From a virus (lineage: Duplodnaviria; Heunggongvirae; Uroviricota; Caudoviricetes), in the IMG/VR virus record IMGVR_UViG_3300033233_000007: 64,000 bases of DNA; one strand, given 5' to 3'. Within the stretch, counting starts at the first letter, position 1, and every line of letters starts with the position of its first letter. The position numbers and the translations under genes were made by a program. Below are positions 1 through 49,915 of the stretch, in pieces. The notes beneath the pieces are model-generated. The model was not told where the DNA came from. It saw only the letters and a program-made list of their open reading frames with translations, and searched no databases.

Positions 1-494
1 GTGAGACTCTCATCGGGCTTGCGCGCCTTCGTCCTTCGCCTCTTCATGACATCCTCCGTCGCTTTTTGCGTGCTTGATCGCGATCCATTTCTTGCCGAGC
101 GCGAGCATTTGAAAGTCGATGTAGAGCGCCGCCGGCATCGTGATCGTCACGGGTTTGGCGTTGACGACCGTTCGACCTTCCCCTATCCACACCCACTCAG
201 CGGACCTGGGCGCCTTCGTCTTTCGCTTCGTCTTTCGCTTCATCTTCCTCCGTTTCTCTAATCTCTTCTTCCCACGTCGCGCTCTGACTGATGCAGGAGT
301 CGCACGGCTCCCATCGCAGGACGACGCCATAGTTGCCGACGTGCTGGCCGTCCCTGTACAACCGGCACGGCTGCTCGGGGCCCCACACGACATCGCTCTT
401 TTTGTGCTCGTCGAAGCACGGGCTGTCGGCCCGCTCCCATAGCGTGTGATGGTTGCAGAAAAACCAGACCCAGATGCTCTTGACGGTGGACATT

Positions 495-4231: not shown

Positions 4232-4717
4232 TTAACCCAAATGAAGGTTCTTCTTGATCCTGTCGACCTCGGCAGCGCTGGGAGACGACCCTTCGCCACC
4301 ACGACTCCTGGCCAACTGGACCAGGGTGTCTTTTCTCATGTAAAAGGAATCCCGAAGGACGTTGAGCAGACGCTCGGACTCTTCGGCAATCTGCGCCCGA
4401 TGACACAGGTCGCGATAGGTCTCGTCGGACCGCACAACCGCCTTGATGGCGGCCTCGGTCGGCTTCTTCTTTTCTCCTTCGGTTTTCTCACGCTCGGCGA
4501 CCGACAGCGTATACTCAAGCTCGCTGAGTTCGGCATCAACGCGGACGCGGTGCGACCGCGCACGTTCATGGATCACGGCGAACCACGCGTAGAGCGACGC
4601 CTGCCGCCCCAGTTCGAAGTCAATGTCATCGCGGTCGATCTGAAGCTCTTTGGCGAGGTCGAAATTCAGAGTCTCGTCGCCGACGACGATCTTCAAGACG
4701 TGCGTGCGGTCGGGCAT
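4232..4717 (-). CDS. hypothetical protein (161 aa)
   Basis: ORF lying between the SSB-like gene and the polymerase, on the same strand. Confidence 0.45.
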   Translation of the reverse strand: MPDRTHVLKIVVGDETLNFDLAKELQIDRDDIDFELGRQASLYAWFAVIHERARSHRVRVDAELSELEYTLSVAEREKTEGEKKKPTEAAIKAVVRSDETYRDLCHRAQIAEESERLLNVLRDSFYMRKDTLVQLARSRGGEGSSPSAAEVDRIKKNLHLG

Positions 4718-7700: not shown

Positions 7701-7827
7701 AGCCGTGGTCCGTGATGGAGCAGGCCGAGAAGCCCGCCGCCTTAGCGAGTGTCGGAAGCTCGTCTACGCGGATCAGGCTGTCGCGGTAGCTGTGATCCGT
7801 GTGGGCGTGTAAGAGCGCGATGTTCAC
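4717..7827 (-). CDS. dnaE: DnaE-type DNA polymerase III alpha (PHP + polymerase core) fused to a C-terminal family-4 uracil-DNA glycosylase domain
   Basis: N-terminal PHP segment MNIALLHAHTDHSY. DnaE core motifs GPRGSVGGCLVAHLLGISILDP and AHAGGFVIS. The C-terminal 150 aa carry a CxxC cluster, GQDPG, GRPLLGESGELI and HPN, which are UDG4-like. Confidence 0.85.
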   Translation of the reverse strand: MNIALLHAHTDHSYRDSLIRVDELPTLAKAAGFSACSITDHGSISGIPRFIASCRKTGIKPILGCELYVTTAYDGDKIFHLTVLCRDLKGFAALSSILGSGVIEKKRLKRLTVPLAKVLEAAGSGLVVLSGCYSSPFWKSEKAIDDLEPFVKAYGDDFYFEVMPVDDWDEQIKLNRIVVQLADHFNRPISASVDCHFACATDKPFHDALLAVADLKAIDDPKAWKFSTKMSYLMTPGEIYEHLQKAGLTEDEAVRAIATTAEIADRCEITDLPHDRLPIAKVCDDPNTVLIERVDAALSKLNVPDKPKYYDRAEYELKTLIEAGLAEYLLLVQKVVDEFKKRGALVGPRGSVGGCLVAHLLGISILDPIRHDLIFERFYAPGRVGSLPDVDLDLPVAVRRRVPEILSEVFGAERVAQIATYSKYGVRQAARDAARTYGVLKDLEKNVKLHDPDEETDWAEDERKTLDGHPVVAELRKLSTLAAEFANRLVGKVRQTGAHAGGFVISSSPINGLGRGYMVNGLLCWDLQDADDIGHLKIDLLGNSTLDILAPFESALAMIPLDDAAVYTDFSEGRTAGTPQFSTSGMKAFLMMLKPAKFEDTVFANAAFRPGGLGQTDPAGLANRYHEDPAGLIVFQEDVMMLCTRVAGFSWTEADGVRKSIAKKLTGAQSFAAWKSKFVEGCLRQKTLTAEEGAALWDQLEGMGRYSFNKSHATAYSLLAYQIGWLKRHRTLDLYASALNVAEDKENKKGDEMKRQLLDEMEEMGVEVLPFSFNHSDIFWTPQNGGVRRALLDIPGVTAAFAKGIFDERSSHGPYQNYYEFKDRLKLRKLPGGLIDAATGADRVLPQIRPAKRVPMLAEETKLCTQCDRRKFCRAPVPVEVGKWNVMVVGQDPGRVEDRRGRPLLGESGELIMALLEHLKINREHLVISNAFKCRPYAGEEKTPECPWLKKEIDEIKPSLILALGRRAWEAVGGKGSIVKANGSTFKTDAGALVVGAIHPNMVLREPAQLSVFESAVRKFARIYHAALKSAFSETT

Positions 7828-33977: not shown

Positions 33978-34283
33978 CTAAACCGGTGGTTTCCAGTTCC
34001 GCCACTGCTCGCAGCCGTTAAGCACGCGCTGAAGCTCTTCCTTCACGGCCATCAGCCGCGCGTCCGGCTTGCGGAACTCGACGACTTCGATGAGACGGAT
34101 CATGCCGCGGGCGAAGTCGTCGATCTCTTCGTTCCAGCGATCGAGGACCTCGGCGTCATCCTTCGTAGCCGCCCAGCCGTGGAGGTCGCTGTCGACGCGG
34201 AACATTTCCTTCACGGACTGTTCGACGAAGCGGATGAGCCACTCGCCTTCGAGGGCGTTGCGGATGTCGGCGTCGATGTCCAT
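33978..34283 (-). CDS. hypothetical protein (101 aa), translationally coupled to the upstream HNH gene (TAATG)
   Basis: ORF MDIDADIRNALEGEW.... Confidence 0.35.
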   Translation of the reverse strand: MDIDADIRNALEGEWLIRFVEQSVKEMFRVDSDLHGWAATKDDAEVLDRWNEEIDDFARGMIRLIEVVEFRKPDARLMAVKEELQRVLNGCEQWRNWKPPV

Positions 34284-34882
34284 TACGGCTCCAGCGGCAC
34301 ATTCCAGTAGGCCCTGTTGACGAACGCGTCCCACGATTCGCGGCGGTGCATCACGGGCACGACGAGCGCGGGCGTCCACTTGGGCTTGACGGGCATCTTG
34401 CGCAGGCGCATCTTCGCCTCGACGGGCGTGCGGTTGGCCTTGCGCTTGTTGCAGTCGATGCACGCTACGACGCTGTTTTCCCAACTGGAGATGCCCCCGC
34501 GGGACCGGGGGATCACGTGGTCGAGCGTGAGGTTCGCCAGGCCCGGTTGAATGCCGCAGTACATGCAGACGTAGCGGTCGCGCTTGAAGATGTTGCGGCG
34601 GGAAAAGACGATCTCGCGTGCGGGGACGCCGTCGTAGAACGTCATGACCATGACTTCGGGTACGCGGATGCGCAGCCGGATCGTGGAGATGTGGGGTTTG
34701 TTCTCCTCCGCACGCACGGCCGCCCAGTCGTCGAAGTCGTAGGTCTGGTACGTCTTGGGCTCGACGAACTTTGCGGAGCCCTTGCACACGAGGTTGATGG
34801 CGTTCTTTACGGTGTCGAGGCGTACGGGTAGCCAGTTCTTGTTGAGGCTCAGGACCGGCCACGTCAGGCAATCGGCGTTCAT
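34283..34882 (-). CDS. HNH endonuclease
   Basis: HNH core CMYCG...LTLDHVIPRSRGG...CIDCNKRK. Confidence 0.75.
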   Translation of the reverse strand: MNADCLTWPVLSLNKNWLPVRLDTVKNAINLVCKGSAKFVEPKTYQTYDFDDWAAVRAEENKPHISTIRLRIRVPEVMVMTFYDGVPAREIVFSRRNIFKRDRYVCMYCGIQPGLANLTLDHVIPRSRGGISSWENSVVACIDCNKRKANRTPVEAKMRLRKMPVKPKWTPALVVPVMHRRESWDAFVNRAYWNVPLEP

Positions 34883-34918
34883 GGGGTCATCTTACCTTTA
34901 TATAGATGGAGATGCCAA

Positions 34919-34993
34919 TAGGCGCGGCTGGATTTGCACCAGCAAGCCGCCCGGTTTAAGCAGGCGAGGTATACTAATTCCCGTCACGCGCCC
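34919..34993 (-). tRNA. tRNA, anticodon UAA (Leu-type anticodon, class I structure, weak D-arm)
   Basis: Hand-folded cloverleaf. Acceptor GGGCGCG/CGCGCCT, anticodon arm GCCUG-CUUAAAC-CGGGC, T-arm GCUGG-UGCAAAU-CCAGC. Confidence 0.35.
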
Positions 34994-34995
34994 GT

Positions 34996-35071
34996 TGGTA
35001 TCCCCGCCCGGAGTCGCGCCGGGTTCTGCGCCTTCGGAGGGCGCCGTGTTTCTATCGTACACCACGGGGAC
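34996..35071 (-). tRNA. tRNA-Arg(CCG)
   Basis: Hand-folded cloverleaf. Acceptor GUCCCCG...CGGGGAU-A-CCA, anticodon loop CUCCGAA. Confidence 0.55.
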
Positions 35072-35125
35072 GCTCTTAAAGAAAACGGCCGTTTCCTTTA
35101 AGAGCGTTTCGAGCTTTCAAAGAGC

Positions 35126-35201
35126 GTTTGAAAAATGGTATCCCCGCGTGGACTCGGACCACGACTTCCGCCTTCGTAGGGCGGCGCTCTGTCCAATTGA
35201 G
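35126..35201 (-). tRNA. tRNA-Arg(ACG)
   Basis: Canonical cloverleaf. D-arm GCUCAAUUGGACAGAGC, anticodon loop CUACGAA, CCA encoded. Confidence 0.75.
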
Positions 35202-35232
35202 CTACGGGGACATCGTACTGTCAAAGAGCGAA

Positions 35233-35308
35233 TGGAACCCTCGGCGGGAGTTGCACCCGCATGATCCCGTTTAGGAAACGGGTGCCTCTTCTTTTCGGCC
35301 ATGAGGGC
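35233..35308 (-). tRNA. tRNA-Arg(CCU) (weak; overlaps the 3' end of the HNH ORF)
   Basis: Acceptor has one mismatch. Anticodon arm CCCGU-UUCCUAA-ACGGG, T-arm GCGGG-UGCAACU-CCCGC. Confidence 0.35.
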
Positions 35309-35897
35309 CATGGTTTCCAAAGAACGTACCTCCGGCGGCCCAGTTCCCAAACAGTCCAAGTTTTCGTGCTGCACGCATTCCGCCAACTACTTTAAGCCAC
35401 GCCTTGTACGGCATATCGCGCCGTGTCCAATTGCATCTGATGCAAGCGGGAACGACGTTGTCGCGGACGTGGCCCTTGGTATTGTCGATGCGATCAAGTG
35501 AAATCTTCATGTCTGATGGCGTTGCCCCACAATAAACGCATCCGCGTGAGATTGAGTCGCGCACAAAATCTCTGGTCAAGTCGAACAGAAGTCCTCGTTT
35601 TCTGTCTTCATCTCTAGCATCCTTCATTATGAGGAAGTCGCGATTTATGCCGAGACGTCTCCATCTCCTGAGTTTGGCTTTGTACTTAGCTTGTTTCCGG
35701 GTATAGGCTACCGGCGACGTTCGCCGCTTCCCCCGTAAGGTGTTGTCGCACGCCTTACATCGTGTTCGAGGCCACCGTTTTCCGTTCACAATTCGCTCGT
35801 AGAACATGTCTACTGGCTTGGGCCTCTTACACAACGTACAGCGTTTATGGTCGGACATAGTTCCGACCATAGTAGTGAACGGTGGTGGGGACTTCAA
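35271..35897 (-). CDS. HNH homing endonuclease inserted in the tRNA array
   Basis: HNH core CVYCG...ISLDRIDNTKGHVRDNVVPACIRCN. Start probably MVGTMSDHK. Confidence 0.7.
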   Translation of the reverse strand: MKSPPPFTTMVGTMSDHKRCTLCKRPKPVDMFYERIVNGKRWPRTRCKACDNTLRGKRRTSPVAYTRKQAKYKAKLRRWRRLGINRDFLIMKDARDEDRKRGLLFDLTRDFVRDSISRGCVYCGATPSDMKISLDRIDNTKGHVRDNVVPACIRCNWTRRDMPYKAWLKVVGGMRAARKLGLFGNWAAGGTFFGNHGPHGRKEEAPVS

Positions 35898-35919
35898 GGA
35901 ATTTGACCTTGAAGTCCCC
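35887..35919. repeat. 13-bp-stem hairpin GGGGACTTCAAGG-aatttga-CCTTGAAGTCCCC
   Basis: Direct reading. It lies between tRNA-Pro(CGG) and the HNH start. Confidence 0.8.
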
Positions 35920-35920
35920 G

Positions 35921-35994
35921 TCGGAGTCTCCGGACGTGCGCCGGGCCTATGCCTGTTCCCGAAACAGGTGGGGCGCTATCTCCCCATGACTCCG
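35921..35994 (-). tRNA. tRNA-Pro(CGG) (non-canonical T-loop)
   Basis: Acceptor CGGAGUC/GACUCCG, D-stem GGGG/CCCC, anticodon loop UUCGGGA. Confidence 0.45.
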
Positions 35995-36003
35995 GTCAAA
36001 GAA

Positions 36004-36074
36004 TCGGCCCGCCGGGATTCGCACCCGGATCAAGCTCTTATAAAGAGCCCGTTCTACTGTTGAACTACGAGCCG
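36004..36074 (-). tRNA. tRNA, anticodon UAU (Ile-type)
   Basis: Hand-folded cloverleaf. D-arm GUUCAACAGUAGAAC, anticodon loop UUUAUAA, T-arm CCGGG-UGCGAAU-CCCGG. Confidence 0.5.
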
Positions 36075-36075
36075 A

Positions 36076-36151
36076 TGGTCAGGGCGGCGGGACTCGCACC
36101 CGCGGTCTCCACGTCCCAAGCGTGGCGCGTTGGCTGCTACGCTACGCCCTG
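36076..36151 (-). tRNA. tRNA-Pro(UGG)
   Basis: Full cloverleaf. Anticodon arm CCACG-CUUGGGA-CGUGG, CCA encoded. Confidence 0.7.
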
Positions 36152-36152
36152 A

Positions 36153-36239
36153 TGGTGCGCTTGAGAGGATTTGCACCTCCACGAGTTTTACCTCACCGGC
36201 CCCTCAAGCCGGCGCGTCTGCTGGTTCCGCCACAGGCGC
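36153..36239 (-). tRNA. tRNA-Leu(GAG) (class II, long variable arm)
   Basis: Anticodon arm CCGGC-UUGAGGG-GCCGG with a 14-nt variable arm. CCA encoded. Confidence 0.6.
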
Positions 36240-36244
36240 GAAAT

Positions 36245-36330
36245 TGGTGGGCCCGAGAGGGTTTGCACCTCTACGCTTATTAGGCACCGGCTTCTGAGAC
36301 CGGCGTGTCTGCTAATTCCACCACGGGCCC
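36245..36330 (-). tRNA. tRNA-Leu(CAG) (class II)
   Basis: Anticodon loop CUCAGAA with a long variable arm. Acceptor GGGCCCG/CGGGCCC. Confidence 0.6.
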
Positions 36331-36331
36331 G

Positions 36332-36405
36332 TGCCCTCGACAGGATTCGCACCTGCATGCCGACGCTTTTGAGGCGTCGAGGTCTTCTAGTTGCCTCACG
36401 AGGGC
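36332..36405 (-). tRNA. tRNA, anticodon CAA (Leu-type anticodon but class I structure)
   Basis: Acceptor GCCCUCG/CGAGGGC is perfect. Anticodon arm GACGC-CUCAAAA-GCGUC, T-arm GCAGG-UGCGAAU-CCUGU. Confidence 0.4.
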
Positions 36406-36441
36406 GTGAGAATCTGTTTCTCAAAGAACGATCCGACTCCA

Positions 36442-36516
36442 TGGTGGCCCCGCTGGGACTCGCACCCAGGTCTCCTGCTTAAGAGGCAGGCCGTCTAGCT
36501 GCTGACATACGAGGCC
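36442..36516 (-). tRNA. tRNA-Lys(CUU)
   Basis: Anticodon arm CCUGC-CUCUUAA-GCAGG, T-arm CUGGG-UGCGAGU-CCCAG. CCA encoded. Confidence 0.65.
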
Positions 36517-36520
36517 GTCA

Positions 36521-36595
36521 TGGGGTCGGCGGGAATCGAACCCGCGTGAAGCTCGGTTAAAAGCCGAGTGCAAAGCCAGCGTTTGCTACGACCCC
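36521..36595 (-). tRNA. tRNA-Lys(UUU)
   Basis: Acceptor GGGGUCG/CGACCCC. Anticodon arm CUCGG-CUUUUAA-CCGAG, T-loop UUCGAUU. Confidence 0.6.
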
Positions 36596-36636
36596 TTGGA
36601 TTTGCCGTCGCGTTTCAAGCGACACCTCCTGAAAAA

Positions 36637-36710
36637 TGGCAGCCCGCCGCGGATTCGCACCGCGATCCTGACTTTGAAAAAGTCATATCCTGCTCTTAGA
36701 CGAGCGGGCC
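36637..36710 (-). tRNA. tRNA-Glu(UUC)
   Basis: Anticodon arm UGACU-UUUUCAA-AGUCA, T-arm CGCGG-UGCGAAU-CCGCG. CCA encoded. Confidence 0.6.
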
Positions 36711-36866
36711 ATCAGTGGGCGTAGCGGGGGAGCATCTTGCGCATACTCATCGGGAACCTGACCCTACTCTGGGCGGGTCTTTGCCAGCTAACCGCTTACC
36801 CTCGGGAGGCTTGGCCCGATCCCTTTGCGCCAGTGCTGGCAGCCCCCGCGCTTCGCCCACTAAAAT
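36711..36866 (-). ncRNA. about 150-nt structured non-tRNA element closed by long-range helices (GTGGGCG/CGCCCAC and GGGGG/CCCCC)
   Basis: No ORF and no cloverleaf could be built. Complementary termini at 36714-36735 and 36842-36862. Strand is assumed from the surrounding tRNAs. Confidence 0.3.
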
Positions 36867-36941
36867 TGGTACCCCGAAGGAGAGTCGAACTCCCGTTTTC
36901 GCCTTGAGAGGGCGGTGTCCTGGCCGCTAGACGACCGGGGC
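36867..36941 (-). tRNA. tRNA-Glu(CUC)
   Basis: Anticodon arm CCGCC-CUCUCAA-GGCGA, T-arm GGGAG-UUCGACU-CUCCU. CCA encoded. Confidence 0.6.
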
Positions 36942-36942
36942 A

Positions 36943-37017
36943 TGGAACCCACGGAGGGAATTGCACCCTCATGACCGATTTAGAGGATCGGCGTCCTGTC
37001 TGTTGAACGACGTGGGC
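36943..37017 (-). tRNA. tRNA-Arg(UCU) (C33 in the loop)
   Basis: Anticodon arm CCGAU-CCUCUAA-AUCGG, D-stem GUUC/GGAC. CCA encoded. Confidence 0.5.
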
Positions 37018-37018
37018 A

Positions 37019-37097
37019 TGGCTCCGGCGGCAGGAGTCGGACCTGCGACTGCCCGCTTAACAGGCGGGTACCTCAAACCGACAGAGGCATCACCGGA
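37019..37097 (-). tRNA. tRNA-Asn(GUU)
   Basis: Anticodon arm CCCGC-CUGUUAA-GCGGG, T-arm GCAGG-UCCGACU-CCUGC, with a long D-loop. Confidence 0.55.
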
Positions 37098-37098
37098 G

Positions 37099-37172
37099 TG
37101 GAGCCGCCGACCCGAATTGCACGGGCATCTGAACTTTACGAAAGTTCTGTTCTGCTGTTGAACTACAGCGGC
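37099..37172 (-). tRNA. tRNA-Thr(CGU)
   Basis: Anticodon arm GAACU-UUCGUAA-AGUUC, D-arm GUUCAACAGCAGAAC. CCA encoded. Confidence 0.6.
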
Positions 37173-37173
37173 A

Positions 37174-37250
37174 TGGAGGCCGCGGCGTGACTTCCACACG
37201 CTACATCCGCCTTTGCAGGGCGGCGCTTCGTATACTTTGGCTTCGCGGCC
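37174..37250 (-). tRNA. tRNA-Cys(GCA) (weak D-arm)
   Basis: Acceptor GGCCGCG/CGCGGCC. Anticodon arm CCGCC-CUGCAAA-GGCGG. Confidence 0.5.
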
Positions 37251-37271
37251 GTGAATCGGCAGATGGATGGA

Positions 37272-37363
37272 TGGCGGAAGGTGAGGGAGTTGCACCCCCG
37301 TCGCCCTTGCGAGGCGCACGGTTTAGCGGACCGTCCCGGCGAACTGTCATCCGGCTACCTTCC
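37272..37363 (-). tRNA. tRNA-Ser(GCU) (class II)
   Basis: Acceptor GGAAGGU/ACCUUCC. Anticodon arm ACGGU-CCGCUAA-ACCGU with an 18-nt variable arm. Confidence 0.6.
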
Positions 37364-37364
37364 G

Positions 37365-37450
37365 TGGGGGAGGGCAACGGAATTGCACCGTCACGCGAGA
37401 TGCGCGGTCCAGTTTTCGAGACTGGTTGGGCACTGCGCCCACTGCCCTCC
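37365..37450 (-). tRNA. tRNA-Ser(CGA) (class II)
   Basis: Anticodon arm CCAGU-CUCGAAA-ACUGG with a 16-nt variable arm. D-stem UGGG/CCCA. Confidence 0.6.
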
Positions 37451-37458
37451 GTGAAATT

Positions 37459-37532
37459 TGGTCCCGGCGGGTGGAGTCTCACCACCGTTTCATCTTCATG
37501 AGGGATGCGTCTTGATCTTAGACCACACCGGG
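37459..37532 (-). tRNA. tRNA-Met(CAU), elongator-type
   Basis: Anticodon loop CUCAUGA, T-arm GGUGG-UGAGACU-CCACC. CCA encoded. Confidence 0.55.
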
Positions 37533-37533
37533 A

Positions 37534-37608
37534 TGGAGCCGCCGGTCCGAGTTGCACGGACATGAACCTGTTTACAGGACAGGGGCCTTGCTGTTAGGCG
37601 ACGGCGGC
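37534..37608 (-). tRNA. tRNA-Thr(UGU)
   Basis: Acceptor GCCGCCG perfect. Anticodon arm CCUGU-CCUGUAA-ACAGG, T-arm GUCCG-UGCAACU-CGGAC. Confidence 0.6.
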
Positions 37609-37645
37609 AAAAAAAACGCCGGTGTTCTACTATTGAACTACACCG
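37609..37645 (-). terminator. truncated tRNA 5' half (acceptor + D-arm) forming a hairpin followed by T8; possible intrinsic terminator
   Basis: Minus strand reads CGGUGUAGUUCAAUAGUAGAACACCGGCG then UUUUUUUU. No anticodon arm, T-arm or 3' acceptor strand is present. Confidence 0.35.
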
Positions 37646-37766
37646 TGGAAAACGGTTGACCGGACTACGCGCGCTACGCCGGGTCGTTTTCTCGTGCGGA
37701 GGGTACTGCCCCCTCGTCTCCGGCTCTCACGGCGTCGTTTAATCCGACGCCATGAGAGAAGGAGAA

Positions 37767-37840
37767 TGGGGCCGCCAGCGGGTACTGCCCCCGCGCTTCG
37801 ATCTTACCAAGATCGCGGACTGCTTTTATCCTATGGCGGC
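37767..37840 (-). tRNA. tRNA-Thr(GGU) with atypical T-loop GGCAGUA
   Basis: Acceptor GCCGCCA/UGGCGGC. Anticodon arm CGAUC-UUGGUAA-GAUCG, T-arm GCGGG-GGCAGUA-CCCGC. CCA encoded. Confidence 0.4.
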
Positions 37841-37841
37841 A

Positions 37842-37916
37842 TGGTCCTCGCTGAGGGAATCGCACCCCCGTCCCGTGGGTGTAGGCCACGTGTTCTGGCT
37901 GCTGAACTAAGCGAGG
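37842..37916 (-). tRNA. tRNA-Val(UAC)
   Basis: Acceptor CCUCGCU perfect. Anticodon arm CGUGG-CCUACAC-CCACG, D-arm GUUCAGCAGCCAGAAC. Confidence 0.6.
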
Positions 37917-37917
37917 A

Positions 37918-37991
37918 TGGTCCTCGGCCGAGGAGTCGCGCCTCGGTTTCCAGCGTGTCATGCTGGCGTCCTCCTGTTGAACGAGCCGAGG
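37918..37991 (-). tRNA. tRNA-Val(GAC)
   Basis: Anticodon arm CCAGC-AUGACAC-GCUGG, T-arm CGAGG-CGCGACU-CCUCG. Confidence 0.6.
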
Positions 37992-37992
37992 A

Positions 37993-38070
37993 TGGTCGGG
38001 GTGACAGGGCTTGCACCTGCGGCCTCCAGCGCCCCACGCTGGCGCTCATCACTATCTGAGCTACACCCCG
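37993..38070 (-). tRNA. tRNA-Pro(GGG)
   Basis: Acceptor CGGGGUG perfect. D-arm GCUC...GAGC, anticodon arm CCAGC-GUGGGGC-GCUGG. Confidence 0.6.
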
Positions 38071-38071
38071 A

Positions 38072-38145
38072 TGGGGTGATCGCCCGGATTTGCACCGGGA
38101 CTGACAGGGCCACGGCCTGCCGTGCTTCTGTTACACCACGATCAC
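38072..38145 (-). tRNA. tRNA-His(GUG)
   Basis: Acceptor GUGAUCG perfect. Anticodon arm GCAGG-CCGUGGC-CCUGU, T-arm CCCGG-UGCAAAU-CCGGG. Confidence 0.5.
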
Positions 38146-38151
38146 GAAGAT

Positions 38152-38226
38152 TGGTCCGCCCGGTTGGAGTTGCACCAAACATCAGCCGCTTATCGGGCGG
38201 CCGTTCTACTGTTGAACTACGAGCGG
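38152..38226 (-). tRNA. tRNA-Ile(GAU)
   Basis: Anticodon arm GCCGC-CCGAUAA-GCGGC, D-arm GUUCAACAGUAGAAC. Confidence 0.55.
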
Positions 38227-38227
38227 A

Positions 38228-38301
38228 TGGACCGGCCAGCGGGTACTGCCCCCGCGCTTTCGCCTTGGCAAAGCGACAGACTTCTACTATCCGATGGCCG
38301 G
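38228..38301 (-). tRNA. tRNA-Gly(GCC) with atypical T-loop GGCAGUA
   Basis: Acceptor CCGGCCA/UGGCCGG. Anticodon arm UCGCU-UUGCCAA-GGCGA, T-arm GCGGG-GGCAGUA-CCCGC. Confidence 0.4.
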
Positions 38302-38302
38302 T

Positions 38303-38377
38303 TGGCTGGCCCGGAAGGATTCGCACCTTCACCGCGACGTTCAGAGCGTCGAATGCTGCGTGTTACACCACGAGCCA
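38303..38377 (-). tRNA. tRNA-Gln(CUG)
   Basis: Anticodon arm CGACG-CUCUGAA-CGUCG, T-arm GAAGG-UGCGAAU-CCUUC. Confidence 0.6.
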
Positions 38378-38378
38378 G

Positions 38379-38461
38379 TGGTGGGCGCGTACGGAATCGA
38401 ACCGCCTAGTCTTCGACAACGGGTTTACAACCCGCCTCCGATCCCACTCGGCAGCGCGCCC
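38379..38461 (-). tRNA. tRNA-Tyr(GUA) (class II)
   Basis: Acceptor GGGCGCG perfect. Anticodon arm GCGGG-UUGUAAA-CCCGU with a 12-nt variable arm. Confidence 0.55.
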
Positions 38462-39099
38462 TAGCGTGCTTTGTACGATCGATGCTTCTTTGAACGCTCG
38501 ACCATGCGCTCGACGTACCGGATCATTTTCCGCGGCGTGACGGCCGACGTGCGGTAGGCCCAGCGCCCTTCTGAAAGCGCCATGTGCCGCGTTGAGTGGT
38601 GCAGGTGGCAGACCCACTCGAGGTTCTTCGGCCTATTGTCGTCCTCGTTGCCGTTAATGTGATGGACCACAAGAAGGCTCGGGACTTTGATCTTGCAACT
38701 GACGCATCGGAGCTTTCGGCTGTTGTACTTGATCGCGCGGTTGCGAATGCTGGCGGTAGCCGCGCGCCCCTTGCCCCGGCCCCAGTTCCGCGGTCGCGCT
38801 ACGATGATGCCGCTGTCGAGCTTTTGCGCTTTGTGCCGGCACTCGCGGCTGCAGACGGGGGCGCCCTTGAGCGAATTTATGTAGCGCGGCGTGATTTCGA
38901 AGGGCTTGTCGCAGACCTCGCACCAGACGCGCATGCGCTTTCTGGAGAGTTTGTTACGGCATTCAAACGAACAGGCCTTTCGCTTCTTGTCGAACGCGGG
39001 GAAGACGAACTTTTCCTTACAGGCCCCGCAACGTCTCTCGACGCAGAGCCGCTTCTGGCCGTCGAAAGTCCGGGTCATGAACGGGCGCCGCCTGAGCAC
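38461..39099 (-). CDS. HNH endonuclease with N-terminal zinc fingers, inside the tRNA array
   Basis: HNH core VVHHINGNEDDNRPKNLEWVCHLHH, with multiple CxxC pairs. Confidence 0.65.
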   Translation of the reverse strand: MLRRRPFMTRTFDGQKRLCVERRCGACKEKFVFPAFDKKRKACSFECRNKLSRKRMRVWCEVCDKPFEITPRYINSLKGAPVCSRECRHKAQKLDSGIIVARPRNWGRGKGRAATASIRNRAIKYNSRKLRCVSCKIKVPSLLVVHHINGNEDDNRPKNLEWVCHLHHSTRHMALSEGRWAYRTSAVTPRKMIRYVERMVERSKKHRSYKAR

Positions 39100-39214
39100 G
39101 AGGGGATCGTACGCGGAAGTTAAGGGAAGTCAAGAGGATGGTGGACCCGCGGGGATGCGCGCCCCGATTTTCACGATGCCATCGTGATGTCCTCCTGGTT
39201 GGACGACGGGCCCA

Positions 39215-39288
39215 TGGTGGACGCGGAGGGAATCGCACCCTCATTTTCGCATTGCGAAAGCGACGGTCTCCTGTTGACCTACGCGCCC
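39215..39288 (-). tRNA. tRNA-Ala(CGC)
   Basis: Acceptor has the G3:U70 Ala identity pair. Anticodon loop UUCGCAA, T-arm GAGGG-UGCGAUU-CCCUC. Confidence 0.5.
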
Positions 39289-39289
39289 A

Positions 39290-39364
39290 TGGCCGGCGCG
39301 GCTGGTAACGCTCCAGCATCTCCTCCTCTTCAGGGAGGCGCTCAAACTTCTGAGCTACGCGCCG
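39290..39364 (-). tRNA. tRNA-Phe(GAA)
   Basis: Acceptor CGGCGCG perfect. D-arm GCUC...GAGC, anticodon arm CCUCC-CUGAAGA-GGAGG. Confidence 0.6.
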
Positions 39365-39372
39365 GTGAAAGA

Positions 39373-39446
39373 TGGTTCCGGGAGAAGGATTTACACCTTC
39401 GTCTTCTGATTCAAAGTCAGAAATCCTATTACTAGACGATCCCGGA
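39373..39446 (-). tRNA. tRNA-Gln(UUG)
   Basis: Anticodon arm UCUGA-CUUUGAA-UCAGA, T-arm GAAGG-UGUAAAU-CCUUC. Confidence 0.55.
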
Positions 39447-39447
39447 A

Positions 39448-39525
39448 TGGCGGGGATGACGAGAGTCGCACTCGCTAATTGCCGCCGTGACAGGGCGGTG
39501 GCTCCACTACTTTGCCCTCATCCCC
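39448..39525 (-). tRNA. tRNA-Asp(GUC)
   Basis: Acceptor GGGGAUG perfect. Anticodon arm CCGCC-CUGUCAC-GGCGG. Confidence 0.6.
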
Positions 39526-39720
39526 GTAGAGCAAAACGCGCCGGGTTGAGGATGTGAACACCGGCCTTGGGAACCTTGCCGCTATGTGCGGCCCTCCTCT
39601 AGTACCATCGGCCTAAGCCGACTTCCCGTTCGTTTCCGCGTTTTGCATGGCAGGCCAGCCTCGGTGCTGCCCCGAGCTTCCGGGTTTTGGAGACCCAGAT
39701 GGTCGCTGGACCGCGGCCTG

Positions 39721-39795
39721 TGGAAGCGGGAGGCCGAATTGCACGGCCTTGCGTGGCTTATGAGACCACGAGGATGACTTCACCCTCCTCCCGCA
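39721..39795 (-). tRNA. tRNA-Met(CAU) with a 1:72 mismatch (initiator-like)
   Basis: Anticodon loop CUCAUAA. T-arm GGCCG-UGCAAUU-CGGCC is perfect. U1/U72 are unpaired. Confidence 0.5.
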
Positions 39796-39796
39796 A

Positions 39797-39871
39797 TGGA
39801 CCGGCCAGCGGGCTCTGCCCCCGCGCGACGACTTTGGAAGAGTCGTATGCTGCTGGTTACATCATGGCCGG
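39797..39871 (-). tRNA. tRNA-Gly(UCC) with atypical T-loop GGCAGAG
   Basis: Acceptor CCGGCCA/UGGCCGG. Anticodon arm CGACU-CUUCCAA-AGUCG, T-arm GCGGG-GGCAGAG-CCCGC. Confidence 0.4.
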
Positions 39872-40311: not shown

Positions 40312-40452
40312 GTGAAGATCGTCCTCCCGACCTTGAAGTGCGTGCGCTGCGGCCACGCGTGGTATCCCCGTCGGCCTGAGACGCCGCCCCGTTGTGCCGG
40401 CTGCAAAAGCCCCTACTGGGACAGGCCGAGGCGCACGGGAGCGAAATCATGA
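40312..40452 (+). CDS. zinc-ribbon mini-protein (46 aa; CxxC...CxxC), paralog of 42921..43055
   Basis: Protein VKIVLPTLKCVRCGHAWYPRRPETPPRCAGCKSPYWDRPRR. Its stop overlaps the next ATG (ATGA). Confidence 0.5.
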   Translation: MKIVLPTLKCVRCGHAWYPRRPETPPRCAGCKSPYWDRPRRTGAKS

Positions 40453-41087
40453 GACCCGGTCCGTACAGGCGGTCAATGACGTCGATACGGATGAGCCATC
40501 ACAGTTTTGTGAAGGAGCCTGTTTTCATGAGAAATCCTGATGACCCGCTGGACTATCCGAGCCTCCGTGACCTGATCGCAGCCGCGCAACTGGCCTCCCG
40601 CATCGGAGAGGATCATGACGTGGACTCGGCGCTGGTCGGCGGCGTTGCGCTTCAACTATACGGCTCTCCTCGGTTTACTCGAGATGCGGACCTCGTGGCC
40701 GGTGCGGCGCTGGGCGACCCGTCGCCAATGCTGAAGCGTAACATCTTGAGTTTTGGCGGAGTCGCCTACGACACGCCGATCGGAGTCGGCGTCGACTGGA
40801 TCACTCGATCCGACGAGTACGCGCAATTGTACGACGCCGTGCTTGACGCTTCCGTGTCGACGAAGCATGGAATCAAGATCGCGCGGCCGGAGTATCTTGT
40901 CGCGATGAAGATGGCTGCGTCGCGGCCAAAGGATTATGAGGACCTCATGTGGCTTTTGGGCGCTCCCGGACTCGTGGACGTGACGAAGGCGCGGGAGATC
41001 GTGCGCGCGTTTCTCGGTGGGCGGTACGCCGTCGATCAGTTCAACGCCTCTCTTGAAGAAGCGAAATGGCGGGCCGGAAAAACGTGA
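40449..41087 (+). CDS. nucleotidyltransferase (MNT/AbiEii-like)
   Basis: Motif VGGVALQLYGSPRFTRDADLV of the GG(x)A...R.T.DxD type. Translationally coupled to the zinc-ribbon ORF. Confidence 0.65.
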   Translation: MRPGPYRRSMTSIRMSHHSFVKEPVFMRNPDDPLDYPSLRDLIAAAQLASRIGEDHDVDSALVGGVALQLYGSPRFTRDADLVAGAALGDPSPMLKRNILSFGGVAYDTPIGVGVDWITRSDEYAQLYDAVLDASVSTKHGIKIARPEYLVAMKMAASRPKDYEDLMWLLGAPGLVDVTKAREIVRAFLGGRYAVDQFNASLEEAKWRAGKT

Positions 41088-47221: not shown

Positions 47222-49915
47222 GTGGAGGTCGTAACCTTGAAAAGAAACGTACAAGCGACCGCCGAACTCATGATGGGCCGTGAAGCCGACAGCGGCCGTA
47301 CGTTCGCGCTGCCCGTGGATGCACTCGTGCAGACGTTCGCGTTCATGGGCATCCGCGGCTCGGGCAAGTGCGTGGAAGCTTCGGAAAAGATTTTGTTGTC
47401 CGATGGTAGAGTCGAACCTGCTCATACTTTGATCGGCCGAACTTTCTCAATCTTGGGCATTGGGGATAAAGGTGAGTTCGTACCGAGGATTGCACACGCT
47501 GCGGACAATGGCATGCGCGGCACTTATCTCGTCAGAACAAGAAGCGGGAGGGAGATTCTTAGGACGGCTGAACATCCCCTCTGGGCGGCGGAAGTTGTCA
47601 CCGAATATACTCGACCAAAGATAAAGAAGGTTGGATGGGTTGCGGTACAGAACTTGGTCGCCTGCGGATGGGGCGAGTCAAGAGATCGAAAGATGGTCCA
47701 TGCCGTTGCTGTTCCCACCTCTATTCCGATCAATGGGAATCGTCCTCGCAATGATGATGAAGTGAAGCTGGCGGCTTACTTGGTAGGAGACGGGGGCACG
47801 ACTTGCTCTGTCAGTTTTACGCATCTTCCGGGACCCGCGCTGGATGAGTTTGTGGAAATTGCGCATCGTCTTGGCGGAAAGGTTCATTGCTCCAAGTCCG
47901 CGTCAAAAGCAGTACAGCTTAGAGTCTCTGGAGCTTCGAATCTGGATGGCAGAGGGAGCAAGGGATCGAATCCAGTTCTTGAGCTTGTCAAGTCATGGGG
48001 ATTGTTTGGGGTTAAGTCCAAGCACAAGTCATTCCCGAGTTGGGTGTGGGAGTTGCCGGATCGCCAAATTGCCTTATTCTTGAACCGTCTGCTGTCTTGT
48101 GACGGGTGGGCGTTAACGACTACGCATGGCAGGTCGGATATTGGCATCTGTTCTGCATCCTATGCTTTGATCCGGGATGTTGAACTGGCCATGCTCAGAC
48201 TTGGCATTCCGGGATCGATTAACCGCAAGACCGTTAAAGGGGTGTGGAAGACGACTCCTGGTGACTACATCGCCTATACGTGGAATATTGGGAGTCGAGA
48301 GGCTCTTGCGACATTTGTCGCAAGAGTTGGAATCTTTGGCAAGGAACAACAAGTTGCGAAAGCCGTACCTCATAACGGCGGCGCTGGATGGAAGCGGACA
48401 TGGACAGCCGTTGATGACATGCCTGGAATGCGATGGGATTTCGTTGAAAGGGTCCAGTGCATTGGTGAACGCCCGACTGTTTCGATTTCTGTGCCTGGAG
48501 ATGAGCGTTTCGTAACAACCTTTCTTGAGCACAACACCACGGCCGTCGCCGTTCTTGCCGAGGAGTTCTCCAAAGCCGGTCTGCCGTGGATCATGCTCGA
48601 TCCTGTCGGCGTCGGCTGGGGCCTCCGTGCGGGCAAAGACGGAAAGTCCGGCGGCGGTTTCCCCGTCGTCGTCTTCGGCGGCTCGCACGGCGATCTGCCG
48701 CTCGACAAAGACGGTGGTCGGAAGGTTGCCGAGGCTCTGATCGAATCGAATGTCTGCGCCGTCATCGACCTGTCCAAAGAGAGCAAGAAAACGTGGCGCC
48801 GCTTCCTCACCGATTTTTGTCTCGCACTTATGGACCTGAACCCGCAGACTCCGCGGCACCTCTTTATAGAGGAAGCGGCTGAGTTTATTCCGCAACGAAC
48901 AAAGGTCGCCGTGACGGCCGAGTGCAAGGAAGCCGTGGAGCGGCTCGTGCGGCTTGGCCGAAATCAAGGCTACGGCTGCTCGATCATCACGCAGCGGCCG
49001 GCGACGGTCGACAAAGATGTACTTTCACAATGCGAAAATTTGGTCGTTATGCGTACGGTCGGCAAGCACGACCGTAGGGCTCTCATGGACTGGCTGGAAC
49101 CGAAGTTTTCGGAGCAGGGGCTTGACGAAAAGGGCGTCAGGGCCGAAGGCACGAAACTCGTCAATACCCTCGCGGCCTTCGACAGCGGGGTCGCGTACTT
49201 CTGGAGCCCGCATTGGCTGAAGCAGTTCAAGAAAGTCAGGATTCGCGACCGGGCGACGTTCCATCCGGGGCAGACACGGTCCGTCGGGAAGTCCATCGGC
49301 CCCGTGGCACTCTCTGACGTTACTGAGTTCGTGGAAAGGGTCCGTCGCCAGCTTTCGGCTTCGAAGCCGGCGAGCGTTCCGCAGAGCTATACCCCGAGAA
49401 AAATCGAATCGCTTAAGAAGGAAATCAAGTCTATCGAGACCTCGAGTGGCTCCGCCATCGTGCTCGATCCCGTCACGTCACGTCAAGCTGCTGAGGCTAT
49501 CCGAGACGTCGCCCGAGAGGCCGACGAACTTCGTCAGCGCGTTGGCGAGCTTCAGAAGCAGATCGCCGAGGAGAAGGCCCGTCGTGCCGACGCCGAGAAC
49601 CGTCTGGCCGCGGTCCGCAAGTTCATGGAACCGCAGTACGAGACGATGAAGAAGCTGTTCGAGAAGCTCGGGACTCCGGGCAGTAACGGCGCTGCCGACT
49701 CGTCGGTCTACGCGCCGTGGCTCGAAAAGGCCGGCAAGCGCGGCTCGAAGCGGCTTTTGGAGATCATGATCGCCCGCGGCGAAGTGACGCGCACGCAGCT
49801 TGCGACGCTCGCGGGCATCGCGCAGTCGGGTACGTTCCGAAACTATCTCAGTTGGCTCAAGAGCAACGGCCTCGTGGAGGTTCAGGGCGAGCAGGTTCGC
49901 CTTCGTCCCATTTAG
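47222..49915 (+). CDS. HerA/FtsK-like P-loop ATPase (possible DNA-translocating/packaging ATPase) carrying an intein; C-terminal coiled coil and winged helix
   Basis: Extein Walker A GIRGSGK|TT is reconstituted after intein removal. Walker B LFIEEAAE and HerA-like IITQRP. Confidence 0.7.
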   Translation: MEVVTLKRNVQATAELMMGREADSGRTFALPVDALVQTFAFMGIRGSGKCVEASEKILLSDGRVEPAHTLIGRTFSILGIGDKGEFVPRIAHAADNGMRGTYLVRTRSGREILRTAEHPLWAAEVVTEYTRPKIKKVGWVAVQNLVACGWGESRDRKMVHAVAVPTSIPINGNRPRNDDEVKLAAYLVGDGGTTCSVSFTHLPGPALDEFVEIAHRLGGKVHCSKSASKAVQLRVSGASNLDGRGSKGSNPVLELVKSWGLFGVKSKHKSFPSWVWELPDRQIALFLNRLLSCDGWALTTTHGRSDIGICSASYALIRDVELAMLRLGIPGSINRKTVKGVWKTTPGDYIAYTWNIGSREALATFVARVGIFGKEQQVAKAVPHNGGAGWKRTWTAVDDMPGMRWDFVERVQCIGERPTVSISVPGDERFVTTFLEHNTTAVAVLAEEFSKAGLPWIMLDPVGVGWGLRAGKDGKSGGGFPVVVFGGSHGDLPLDKDGGRKVAEALIESNVCAVIDLSKESKKTWRRFLTDFCLALMDLNPQTPRHLFIEEAAEFIPQRTKVAVTAECKEAVERLVRLGRNQGYGCSIITQRPATVDKDVLSQCENLVVMRTVGKHDRRALMDWLEPKFSEQGLDEKGVRAEGTKLVNTLAAFDSGVAYFWSPHWLKQFKKVRIRDRATFHPGQTRSVGKSIGPVALSDVTEFVERVRRQLSASKPASVPQSYTPRKIESLKKEIKSIETSSGSAIVLDPVTSRQAAEAIRDVAREADELRQRVGELQKQIAEEKARRADAENRLAAVRKFMEPQYETMKKLFEKLGTPGSNGAADSSVYAPWLEKAGKRGSKRLLEIMIARGEVTRTQLATLAGIAQSGTFRNYLSWLKSNGLVEVQGEQVRLRPI
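47369..48535 (+). other. intein (389 aa) with a LAGLIDADG homing endonuclease domain, inserted in the P-loop
   Basis: Starts at Cys after GSGK (CVEASEKILLSDG). LAGLIDADG-like blocks LAAYLVGDGG and LFLNRLLSCDGW. Ends FVTTFLEHN, followed by Thr. Confidence 0.7.

Follow-up and report, generated by a model that had tools for sequence, protein, structure and literature searches.

The subject of this analysis is a 64-kb stretch of phage DNA (IMG/VR record IMGVR_UViG_3300033233_000007; below, the window) and, within it, three genes for transfer RNAs (tRNAs) that share an unusual T-loop beginning with GGCAG. They belong to a tRNA array on the minus strand (34916..39871), and all tRNA loci are read here as the reverse complement. 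ARAGORN, the Rfam tRNA model and two purpose-built covariance models (R1 and R2, defined below) together delineate 39 tRNA-like units for all 20 amino acids in 4,956 bp (~7.9 per kb), on one strand and with very short spacers. The three genes are tRNA-Thr(GGU) at 37767..37840 (-), with the T-arm GCGGG-GGCAGUA-CCCGC at 37778-37794; tRNA-Gly(GCC) at 38228..38301 (-), with the same T-arm at 38239-38255; and tRNA-Gly(UCC) at 39797..39871 (-), the first unit of the array, with the T-arm GCGGG-GGCAGAG-CCCGC at 39808-39824. The three loci are real tRNA genes.

The body of each gene is that of an ordinary tRNA. Each of them forms the complete cloverleaf of 21 pairs (7/4/5/5 bp, standard spacing), in agreement with an earlier reading made from the sequence alone (the sequence-only reading), which had described the acceptor, D and anticodon arms as normal and had pointed to U33 and A37. 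Both bases are present, in 7-nt anticodon loops: UUGGUAA in Thr GGU, UUGCCAA in Gly GCC and CUUCCAA in Gly UCC. Divided into its helices and loops, Thr GGU (37840-37767) reads GCCGCCA-UA-GGAU-AAAAGCA-GUCC-G-CGAUC-UUGGUAA-GAUCG-AAGC-GCGGG-GGCAGUA-CCCGC-UGGCGGC-C-CCA. The anticodon stem has 5 bp, the variable loop 4 nt and the D-loop 7-8 nt, there are two linker bases, and U8, A14 and A21 are found in all of them. The minimum free energy fold is the cloverleaf for two of the three and contains every helix but the D-stem for Gly UCC. Each gene ends in a discriminator base and an encoded CCA, with neighbouring tRNAs 1-2 nt away; Gly GCC exactly occupies the gap between Gln CUG and Ile GAU, with 1-nt spacers. 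The 7-66 pair is A7-U66 in the three and G7-C66 in most of their array neighbours.

The departure from the canonical tRNA lies in the elbow, where the D- and T-loops meet. The sequence-only reading had described the three T-loops as identical; this holds for the first five bases (GGCAG), and the last two differ, being UA in Thr GGU and Gly GCC and AG in Gly UCC. It had also described the loops as lacking T54, Ψ55 and A58, and positions 54, 55 and 58 are indeed all G, with C56 and a purine at 57 (A57) kept. The canonical T54 Ψ55 C56 R57 A58 is thus G54 G55 C56 A57 G58 in all three genes. None has the canonical G18 G19 of the D-loop either: the loops AAAAGCA (Thr GGU), AGUAGAA (Gly GCC) and AACCAGCA (Gly UCC) each give A18 G19. 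Because U54, U55 and A58 are all replaced by G, the modifications m5U54, pseudouridine 55 and m1A58 are impossible. The arm GCGGG-GGCAGNN-CCCGC occurs three times in the window with no mismatches, and perfect 5-bp stems around GGCAGNN occur six times, five of them on the minus strand inside the array. In 100 dinucleotide shuffles of the window such hairpins number 0.98 on average and four at most; chance does not account for the copies observed. Identity of the hairpins with alpha-tmRNA or permuted tmRNA (transfer-messenger RNA) was rejected at ≤17 bits against gathering scores of 47-50; the resemblance is confined to the T-arm.

Standard finders miss the three genes because the T-loop and its contact with the D-loop are replaced. 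ARAGORN reports 28 tRNAs at 34919-39446, all on the minus strand, and none of the three. The Rfam tRNA model (RF00005) reports none of them in a 7-kb search with E values up to 10. When each is searched alone, Gly GCC obtains 39.0 bits (gathering score 29), and Thr GGU and Gly UCC obtain no row in searches with the speed filters on, so that either the filters or the score may be the cause. The two additional models were searched with filters off: R1 was made from 18 members of the GGCAG class, and R2 from 21 class-I tRNAs of the window array, the three not included. At full model length, R2 gives 60.3 bits to Thr GGU, 59.4 to Gly UCC and 54.4 to Gly GCC, compared with 55.9-79.6 for its training set, and the three are its top matches outside that set. 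Rejection of all three loci by covariance models is thus not what is observed; Rfam takes one of them and R2 all three.

The three genes do not stand alone. They stand at the extreme of an array in which nearly every elbow is non-canonical, a context that the sequence-only reading missed. Position 55 is G in 34 of the 39 units, U in three and C in two. Positions 54/58 are U/A in 30 units, G/G in four, C/A in two, C/C in two and A/U in one. The canonical UUCGA T-loop is found in only 3/39 units (Lys UUU, Glu CUC and Tyr, all with a GG D-loop). The T-loops with G55 are UGCRA (22 units), CGCGA/CGCGC/CGCAC (four), UGAGA, UGUAA, UGGAA and AGCGU (one each) and GGCAG (four). D-loops with GG occur in exactly the five units in which position 55 is U (three TTCGA) or C (two TCCGA), and the D-loops of G55 units, for example AACAGCA, give A18 G19. 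The three GGCAG tRNAs share G55, C56 and A18-G19 with these neighbours, and therefore differ from them only at positions 54 and 58.

GGCAG-type tRNAs recur elsewhere. The comparative search pattern imposed GGG/CCC in the T-stem and UGG at positions 66-68, so that the spread of amino-acid identities and the apparently invariant C6 and A7 are biased. The strict T-arm pattern matches three other viral contigs, each time as part of a cloverleaf that ends in CCA (Glu UUC twice, a CUA suppressor once), and a looser pattern combined with the CCA requirement finds 14 contigs out of 2.9 million viral contigs. In 185,579 genomes, two of the 120 matches listed for the strict pattern passed a cloverleaf filter (contigs L213 and L234), the other matches listed being mainly chance occurrences in coding regions of GC-rich genomes. 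A scan of metagenomes, with at least 120 matching loci, gives at least 34 unique GGCAG cloverleaves among the matches listed, nearly all in tRNA arrays; among these listed matches the identities are Glu UUC (12), His (11), Ala (4), Glu CUC (3), Gly GCC (3) and Gly UCC (1). Searching with R1 adds GGCAG members outside the pattern (Val GAC, Val UAC, His, Gly UCC) as well as variant loops, GGCGG in Ala GGC and Gln UUG and GUCGG in Gly GCC. The subclass is rare yet recurrent, with ~50 other cloverleaves in unrelated phage arrays and in contigs resembling those of the Candidate Phyla Radiation (CPR). The excess of Glu, His, Gly and Ala among its members might reflect tuning to EF-Tu, an effect inseparable from the bias of the search pattern. 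In most GGCAG-type tRNAs found without the UGG constraint the 7-66 pair is A-U or U-A, which could be a co-adaptation beside the T-stem or a mark of common ancestry.

We aligned 18 GGCAG-type tRNAs, from the window, 13 viral contigs and two genome contigs. Of the paired cells of this alignment, 99.2% can pair, and in 15 of the 21 base pairs both partners vary. The score for covariation is 0.84, compared with 0.21 for shuffles and ≤0.14 for slid partners, and all four helices covary. The A-G dinucleotide that gives A18-G19 is present in the D-loop of 18/18 members. Across phages the T-stem is substituted by GC, UU/AA, CU/AG, GU/AC, AC/GU and CC/GG around a constant loop. This pattern, a constant loop on a stem that changes by compensation, points to selection on the RNA and not on a DNA repeat.

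Several of the relatives are informative individually. A CUA amber suppressor tRNA with the T-arm GCGGG-GGCAGUU-CCCGC lies at 141-216 (+) of contig L003 (IMGVR_UViG_3300033067_002067), an AT-rich viral contig of 73 kb; its D-loop holds both GG and AG. The ARAGORN label of tRNA-Pyl for this gene was rejected, its geometry being standard. A lone tRNA-His(GUG) at 143-218 (-) of L234, a 95-kb contig of a Candidatus Zambryskibacteria metagenome-assembled genome, has an encoded G-1, C73 and a GGCAGAA loop. The same tRNA is carried by L268, L320 and L350; these contigs, like L234, are AT-rich, its neighbours in them are ordinary cellular genes and a canonical tRNA-Leu, and its anticodon stem covaries between contigs. 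The GGCAG loop is thus not confined to phages, and in this CPR lineage it may be a constant part of tRNA-His. In two Gly(UCC) tRNAs, L065 417-490 (-) and L096 13067-13140 (-), the GGCAGAA loop is closed by U53•U61 and not by G53-C61 (T-arms GGGA-U-GGCAGAA-U-UCCU and CCGG-U-GGCAGAA-U-CCGG). A phage tmRNA gene (tag AEQEFALAA) lies at L120 10741-11084 (+), directly upstream of a GGCAG-type Glu(CUC) tRNA, in a viral array of 28 tRNAs.

Arrays related to that of the window come from soil metagenomes. Arrays on L242, L253, L263, L302 and L258 have no TTCRA loop, and their loop repertoire is that of the window (UGCRA, CGCGA, UGAGA, AGCGU, GGCAG). The GGCAG loop is carried there by His and Trp, and Gly GCC has CGCGA. 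The His tRNA of the window has a UGCAA loop, and its acceptor and D-arm are clearly homologous to those of the GGCAG His tRNAs of L242, L302 and L258; one isoacceptor lineage can therefore carry either loop. Cultured phages gave little: none of 50,697 records matched either of two GGCAG-type tRNAs by blastn, and the whole array yields isolated tRNA-level matches only. A search for syntenic arrays among viral contigs through relatives of a neighbouring VWA protein gave no confirmed locus.

Covariation between the two loops suggests how such an elbow may be built. We parsed 157 tRNAs from the window and 11 other arrays, a set that is enriched in GGCAG loops by its collection; GUCGG and GGCGG were not in the search key. 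Position 55 follows the D-loop: G55 goes with A-G in 54 tRNAs and with G-G in eight, and U55 goes with G-G in 81 and with A-G in four. Positions 18 and 55 thus covary (Fisher p = 1.5e-26, 12 off the diagonal). Positions 54..58 are U..A in 124 tRNAs, G..G in 23, A..U in four, C..A in three, A..A in two and C..C in one. G54 goes only with G58 (23/23), and neither G..A nor U..G occurs at 54..58 among the 157. Within the GGCAG class, C56 and G19 are invariant, position 57 is A (G in the GGCGG variants), and the loop has 7 nt. Two other arrangements were rejected. A 6-bp T-stem with a 5-nt loop fails in most members, in which bases 54 and 60 are unable to pair. A kissing contact of two pairs, G19-C56 and C20-G55, is at odds with position 20, which is C, U, A or G among class members next to an invariant A18.

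At the elbow of a tRNA, residue 18 is inserted between 57 and 58 and touches 55, and G19 pairs with C56; the ribosome, RNase P and T-boxes stack on the outer face of the G19-C56 pair (PMC4810234). T-loops outside tRNAs are mostly UGNRA or CGNRA with an intercalating adenosine, and one ribosomal RNA (rRNA) T-loop is GGAAG (bioRxiv 10.1101/2022.12.26.521914). The YGCRA loops with A18 follow this generic rule, as G at position 2 goes with an intercalating adenosine. The same combination is seen in the YGNRA T-loops of the flavin mononucleotide (FMN) and cobalamin riboswitches (bioRxiv 10.1101/2022.12.26.521914; PMC4810234), and generic T-loops further resemble those of the window in the purine at position 4 and in two bulged 3' bases. 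The rRNA GGAAG loop is a natural T-loop with G at positions 1 and 5. Unlike all of these, which sit in riboswitches and rRNA, the loops described here form a tRNA elbow in which position 3 is a C that pairs with G19, and for the G54•G58 geometry we have seen no tRNA precedent, unlike the rRNA setting of GGAAG. As judged from sequence, intercalation of A18 against G55 would agree with the T-loop rule, and the elbow most likely consists of a G54•G58 closing pair, an A18/G55 contact and the retained G19-C56 pair.

Compared with the canonical elongator tRNA (Rfam RF00005), the three tRNAs agree in the 7/4/5/5-bp cloverleaf, U8, A14, A21, U33, purine 37, G19-C56 and G53-C61, and also in the 7-nt T-loop, purine 57, discriminator with CCA and location in a phage array. 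They differ in that G18 is A and U54, U55 and A58 are G. A natural exchange of U54•A58 for a purine-purine combination in working tRNAs is found in eukaryotic tRNA-Ala with A54/A58 (PMC7566577). The pair there is A•A and not G•G, and these eukaryotic cytosolic tRNAs keep U55 and G18. Initiator tRNA also has A54. Like the three, tRNA-Pyl has neither G18G19 nor TΨC, and in its Desulfitobacterium form it has G55 (PMC1851642). Unlike them, it keeps U54•A58, with A56, a CUA anticodon, a 6-bp anticodon stem, a 3-nt variable loop, one linker base and a 5-nt D-loop. The three genes, with their standard geometry, are not of this type, and only a Trp-like unit of the array (39648-39719) is compact in the same way. 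The literature searched, with subscription journals mostly outside it, describes no tRNAs with G54/G58 or A18/G55 and no arrays with non-canonical elbows, which is not proof of absence.

The Trp(CCA)-like unit at 39648..39719 (-) carries a fifth GGCAG hairpin, CUCGG-GGCAGCA-CCGAG at 39660-39676 (-), found by the hairpin scan and absent from the copies listed by the sequence-only reading. R1 gives the unit 29.7 bits and R2 12.7 bits. It has one linker base, a D-stem of 3-4 bp with a 4-6 nt loop, an anticodon stem of 6-7 bp and a variable region of 2-3 nt, and the window copy has a one-base bulge (an extra base) in the 3' acceptor strand. Homologues with the same GGCAGCA loop are present at L242 300-373, L263 1810-1883 and L302 ~4680-4765, and across the Trp units the T-stems are CUCGG, CCUGG or CUCCG with their complements, changing by compensation between arrays. 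A further hairpin copy near 37699 that had been described as having no tRNA body lies at 37699..37715 (-), reads GAGGG-GGCAGUA-CCCUC, and indeed stands alone. R2 gives no match around it, R1 gives 21 bits for the T-arm alone, and over a core of 13 nt it matches the Thr and Gly T-arms exactly. Most likely a GGCAG-type tRNA has been lost here and the hairpin is what remains of its T-arm. This orphan lies in the 158-nt spacer between Thr GGU and Thr UGU (37609..37766 (-)), together with a 14-bp hairpin (loop GAUUAAA), a run of eight T at 37609-37616 and, by blastn against the array, an 18-nt D-arm fragment at 37624-37641 that is 94% identical to Ile and Thr tRNAs. The tRNA fragments are in the wrong order for a single tRNA. 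The spacer is best described as tRNA gene debris with a terminator-like end, possibly serving as an internal terminator.

Three other units of the array were left uncalled or are irregular. A Met(CAU)-like tRNA at 39721-39795 (-) has no ARAGORN call, a U1•U72 mismatch, G8, the T-loop UGCAAUU and 34.9 bits with R2; it could be an initiator-like or an Ile2-like species. An uncalled Cys(GCA) unit at 37174-37250 (-) combines a poor D-arm with the T-loop UGGAAGU, in which position 56 is G. A Pro(CGG)-like unit at 35918-35994 (-), also uncalled, has the T-loop CGCACGU and no CCA.

Taken together, these observations suggest that the three loci are genuine tRNA genes with an alternative elbow that form part of a recurrent subclass and most likely work in translation, an explanation that we regard as probable. 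The three tRNAs would be transcribed with the rest of the 39-unit array and released by RNase P, with 3' ends formed by the encoded CCA. Different bases would build the elbow, and its outward face, G19-C56, would be retained. A18 would replace G18 as the intercalating base of the D-loop and would face G55 instead of pseudouridine 55, much as in the riboswitch YGNRA T-loops. The reverse-Hoogsteen pair U54•A58 would become G54•G58, with the rRNA GGAAG T-loop as a precedent. The proposal of the sequence-only reading, a tRNA subfamily with altered elbow or ribosome contacts, therefore survives in its first half, through the recurrent cloverleaves, covarying helices and A18-G19. Altered ribosome contacts are unsupported, because G19-C56, the face read by the ribosome, RNase P and T-boxes, is conserved.

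The decoding capacity of the array is consistent with a role in translation. The two GGCAG-type Gly tRNAs are the only Gly tRNAs found in the window by ARAGORN, Rfam, R1 or R2. Gly accounts for 7.9% of codons in nine open reading frames (ORFs) of the phage, and GGC for 258/457 Gly codons. Thr GGU is the only reader of ACC/ACU in the window (89/282 Thr codons in the same nine ORFs), and it has G1-C72 and C2-G71 like the other two Thr tRNAs.

Several points weigh against this explanation. ARAGORN rejects all three tRNAs, and the Rfam tRNA model, with its speed filters on, leaves Thr GGU and Gly UCC unreported even in separate searches. A G•G pair is wider than U•A, and true isostericity is doubtful. 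Both Gly tRNAs (U73) carry C1-G72, and G1-C72 is an identity element for bacterial glycyl-tRNA synthetase. The phage genome may extend beyond the window and contain canonical Gly tRNAs there. The comparative GGCAG set was collected with a constrained pattern in the T-stem and at 66-68, hence its biased identities.

A possible reason for the selection of such elbows, compatible with work in translation, is that they withdraw the phage tRNAs from factors that recognize the canonical elbow; this is conceivable but doubtful. Candidates are a host T-loop nuclease or another tRNA-directed defence, host modification enzymes, or a phage factor that disables host tRNAs only. The change is directional and array-wide, with G55 in 34/39 units, and the related arrays L242, L263 and L302 are without any TTCRA loop. 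Other phage arrays are mostly canonical: TTCRA is found in 109/137 ARAGORN-called tRNAs across the viral loci, and the array of the cultured Caulobacter phage CcrRogue, used as a control, is canonical in 20/20 tRNAs. With tRNA-like units for all 20 amino acids, the phage could rely on its own array for translation. Phage tRNAs have been proposed to evade tRNA-targeting defences through sequence changes (PMC10264068). On the other side, no T-loop-specific defence is known in the host, five array units retain G18G19 with U55 or C55 (three TTCGA, two TCCGA), and GGCAG also occurs in the lone tRNA-His of CPR-like contigs among ordinary cellular neighbours.

The gene of a candidate factor of this kind lies 0.5 kb away from the array's first tRNA. 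The ORF at 40392-41087 (+) contains a nucleotidyltransferase motif of MenT/AbiEii type (Pfam AbiEii 3.2e-7; PDB 8an4 'bacterial toxin' 2.3e-6; PADLOC AbiEii 2e-4). MenT toxins act on tRNA 3' ends. The match covers only ~40 residues, nothing ties the protein to tRNA here, and no homologue was found beside the related arrays that were fetched. A further, rather unlikely reading is that a soil-phage lineage maintains a self-sufficient tRNA set with a systematically recoded elbow as a natural 'orthogonal' pool. G18•Ψ55 would have become A18•G55 throughout and U54•A58 would have become G54•G58 in a few tRNA species, with G19-C56 intact. Such a pool would be without the bases read by T-loop modification enzymes or T-loop-directed nucleases. 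If so, phage translation would continue while host defences or a phage factor, such as the MenT-like nucleotidyltransferase, inactivated host tRNAs.

An explanation at the level of DNA also deserves consideration, and the sequence-only reading had raised it as a recombination module shared between genes. The T-arm would be a repeat spread by gene conversion or homing-endonuclease repair, or a target of an endonuclease or integrase, with no special RNA function. A run of 25 nt (AAGCGCGGGGGCAGUACCCGCUGGC) is common to Thr GGU and Gly GCC without any difference, and the two Gly genes are the same in the whole acceptor and T-arm half, with wholly different D and anticodon arms. Genes for HNH endonucleases lie inside the array (38461..39099 (-); Pfam HNH_3 E = 4.2e-8, PHROG 1271 E = 4.1e-18) and directly downstream of it (34283..34882 (-); Pfam HNH_5 E = 1e-12), and homologues of the latter (tblastn, 29-37% identity) stand beside tRNA arrays on L120, L321, L313, L345, L351, L245, L300 and L280. 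Among related arrays, the isoacceptor that carries the GGCAG loop differs. Cutting within tRNA genes and the movement of arrays have been reported for homing endonucleases (PMC8421152). The array resembles the long tRNA arrays with homing endonucleases described earlier (PMC8421152, PMC4758250) in its density (39 units in 5 kb), its single strand, its short spacers and the HNH genes within and next to it. At ~7.9 units per kb and with an endonuclease gene, it also agrees with the definition of an array unit in PMC4758250 (≥20 tRNA genes, ≥2 per kb). Unlike it, the arrays in the papers searched are not said to have an array-wide change of the elbow bases.

These features make local gene conversion possible in the window, but the pattern between phages is beyond its reach. 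There the stem changes through compensatory pairs around a fixed loop. A18-G19, the partner of this loop in the D-arm, is still invariant, although it lies ~40 nt away and no such module would include it. Even the orphan copy keeps its pairing through a double change, from GCGGG/CCCGC to GAGGG/CCCUC, and acceptor stems are commonly alike among isoacceptors owing to synthetase identity. A module shared between genes thus finds weak support at most, and we consider it improbable as an account of the three genes.

It is very unlikely that the three are tRNAs with a role outside translation, either charged and kept off the ribosome, as the staphylococcal tRNA-Gly that serves the cell wall, or acting as decoys for tRNA-targeting enzymes. 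Gly tRNAs without G18 and U55, hypomodified by necessity, make up two of the three, and the non-proteogenic tRNA-Gly species of S. aureus likewise lack G18-G19 and U55 (PMC13443448). The staphylococcal species, however, take no part in translation; they also lack G19, are Gly UCC only, and have weak EF-Tu determinants and an anticodon loop shortened by an extra C31-G38 pair. The tRNAs described here keep G19-C56 and have normal 7-nt anticodon loops with U33 and A37 as well as a G/C-rich T-stem. Their class serves many amino acids (Thr, Glu, His, Ala, Val and Trp besides Gly, and a suppressor), and the window has no other tRNA for its frequent Gly codons. That the loci are decaying pseudogenes merely resembling tRNAs is hardly credible: standard finders reject them and the array does contain debris (the 37609-37766 spacer, the bulged-acceptor Trp unit, the Cys unit with its poor D-arm), but all 21 pairs are intact in each, the five loop bases recur in unrelated phages with compensatory stem changes, their R2 scores reach those of the neighbouring training tRNAs (54.4-60.3 vs 55.9-79.6 bits), and their anticodons are non-redundant and serve frequent codons.

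The remainder of the window is that of a phage distant from cultured ones. It also encodes a DnaE-type polymerase, a helicase, a primase, HNH endonucleases and a terminase, and the identity of the polymerase to those of cultured phages is at most ~30%. The polymerase gene (4717-7827 (-)) has a uracil-DNA glycosylase domain fused at the C-terminus. The homologue of the terminase large subunit (47222-49915 (+)) is interrupted by a LAGLIDADG domain, which is probably an intein.

Few bases in biology are as conserved as G18, G19, T54, Ψ55 and A58, and gene finders, modification maps and textbook models assume their presence. The three genes are natural tRNAs, apparently under purifying selection, that swap three or four such bases in coordination, and in one phage lineage nearly the whole set of 39 genes has swapped elbow bases. 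Covariation provides evidence for two alternative tertiary pairs in the tRNA elbow and ties the elbow to the wider family of T-loop motifs. Because ARAGORN is blind and Rfam partly blind to such tRNAs, the tRNA complements of phages are underestimated, and claims of 'missing' isoacceptors are affected in the same way. Elbows beyond the reach of TrmA, TruB and TrmI, and possibly of T-loop nucleases as well, could serve as parts for orthogonal translation systems. For the phages themselves, an altered elbow may be a route to protecting their own tRNA pool.

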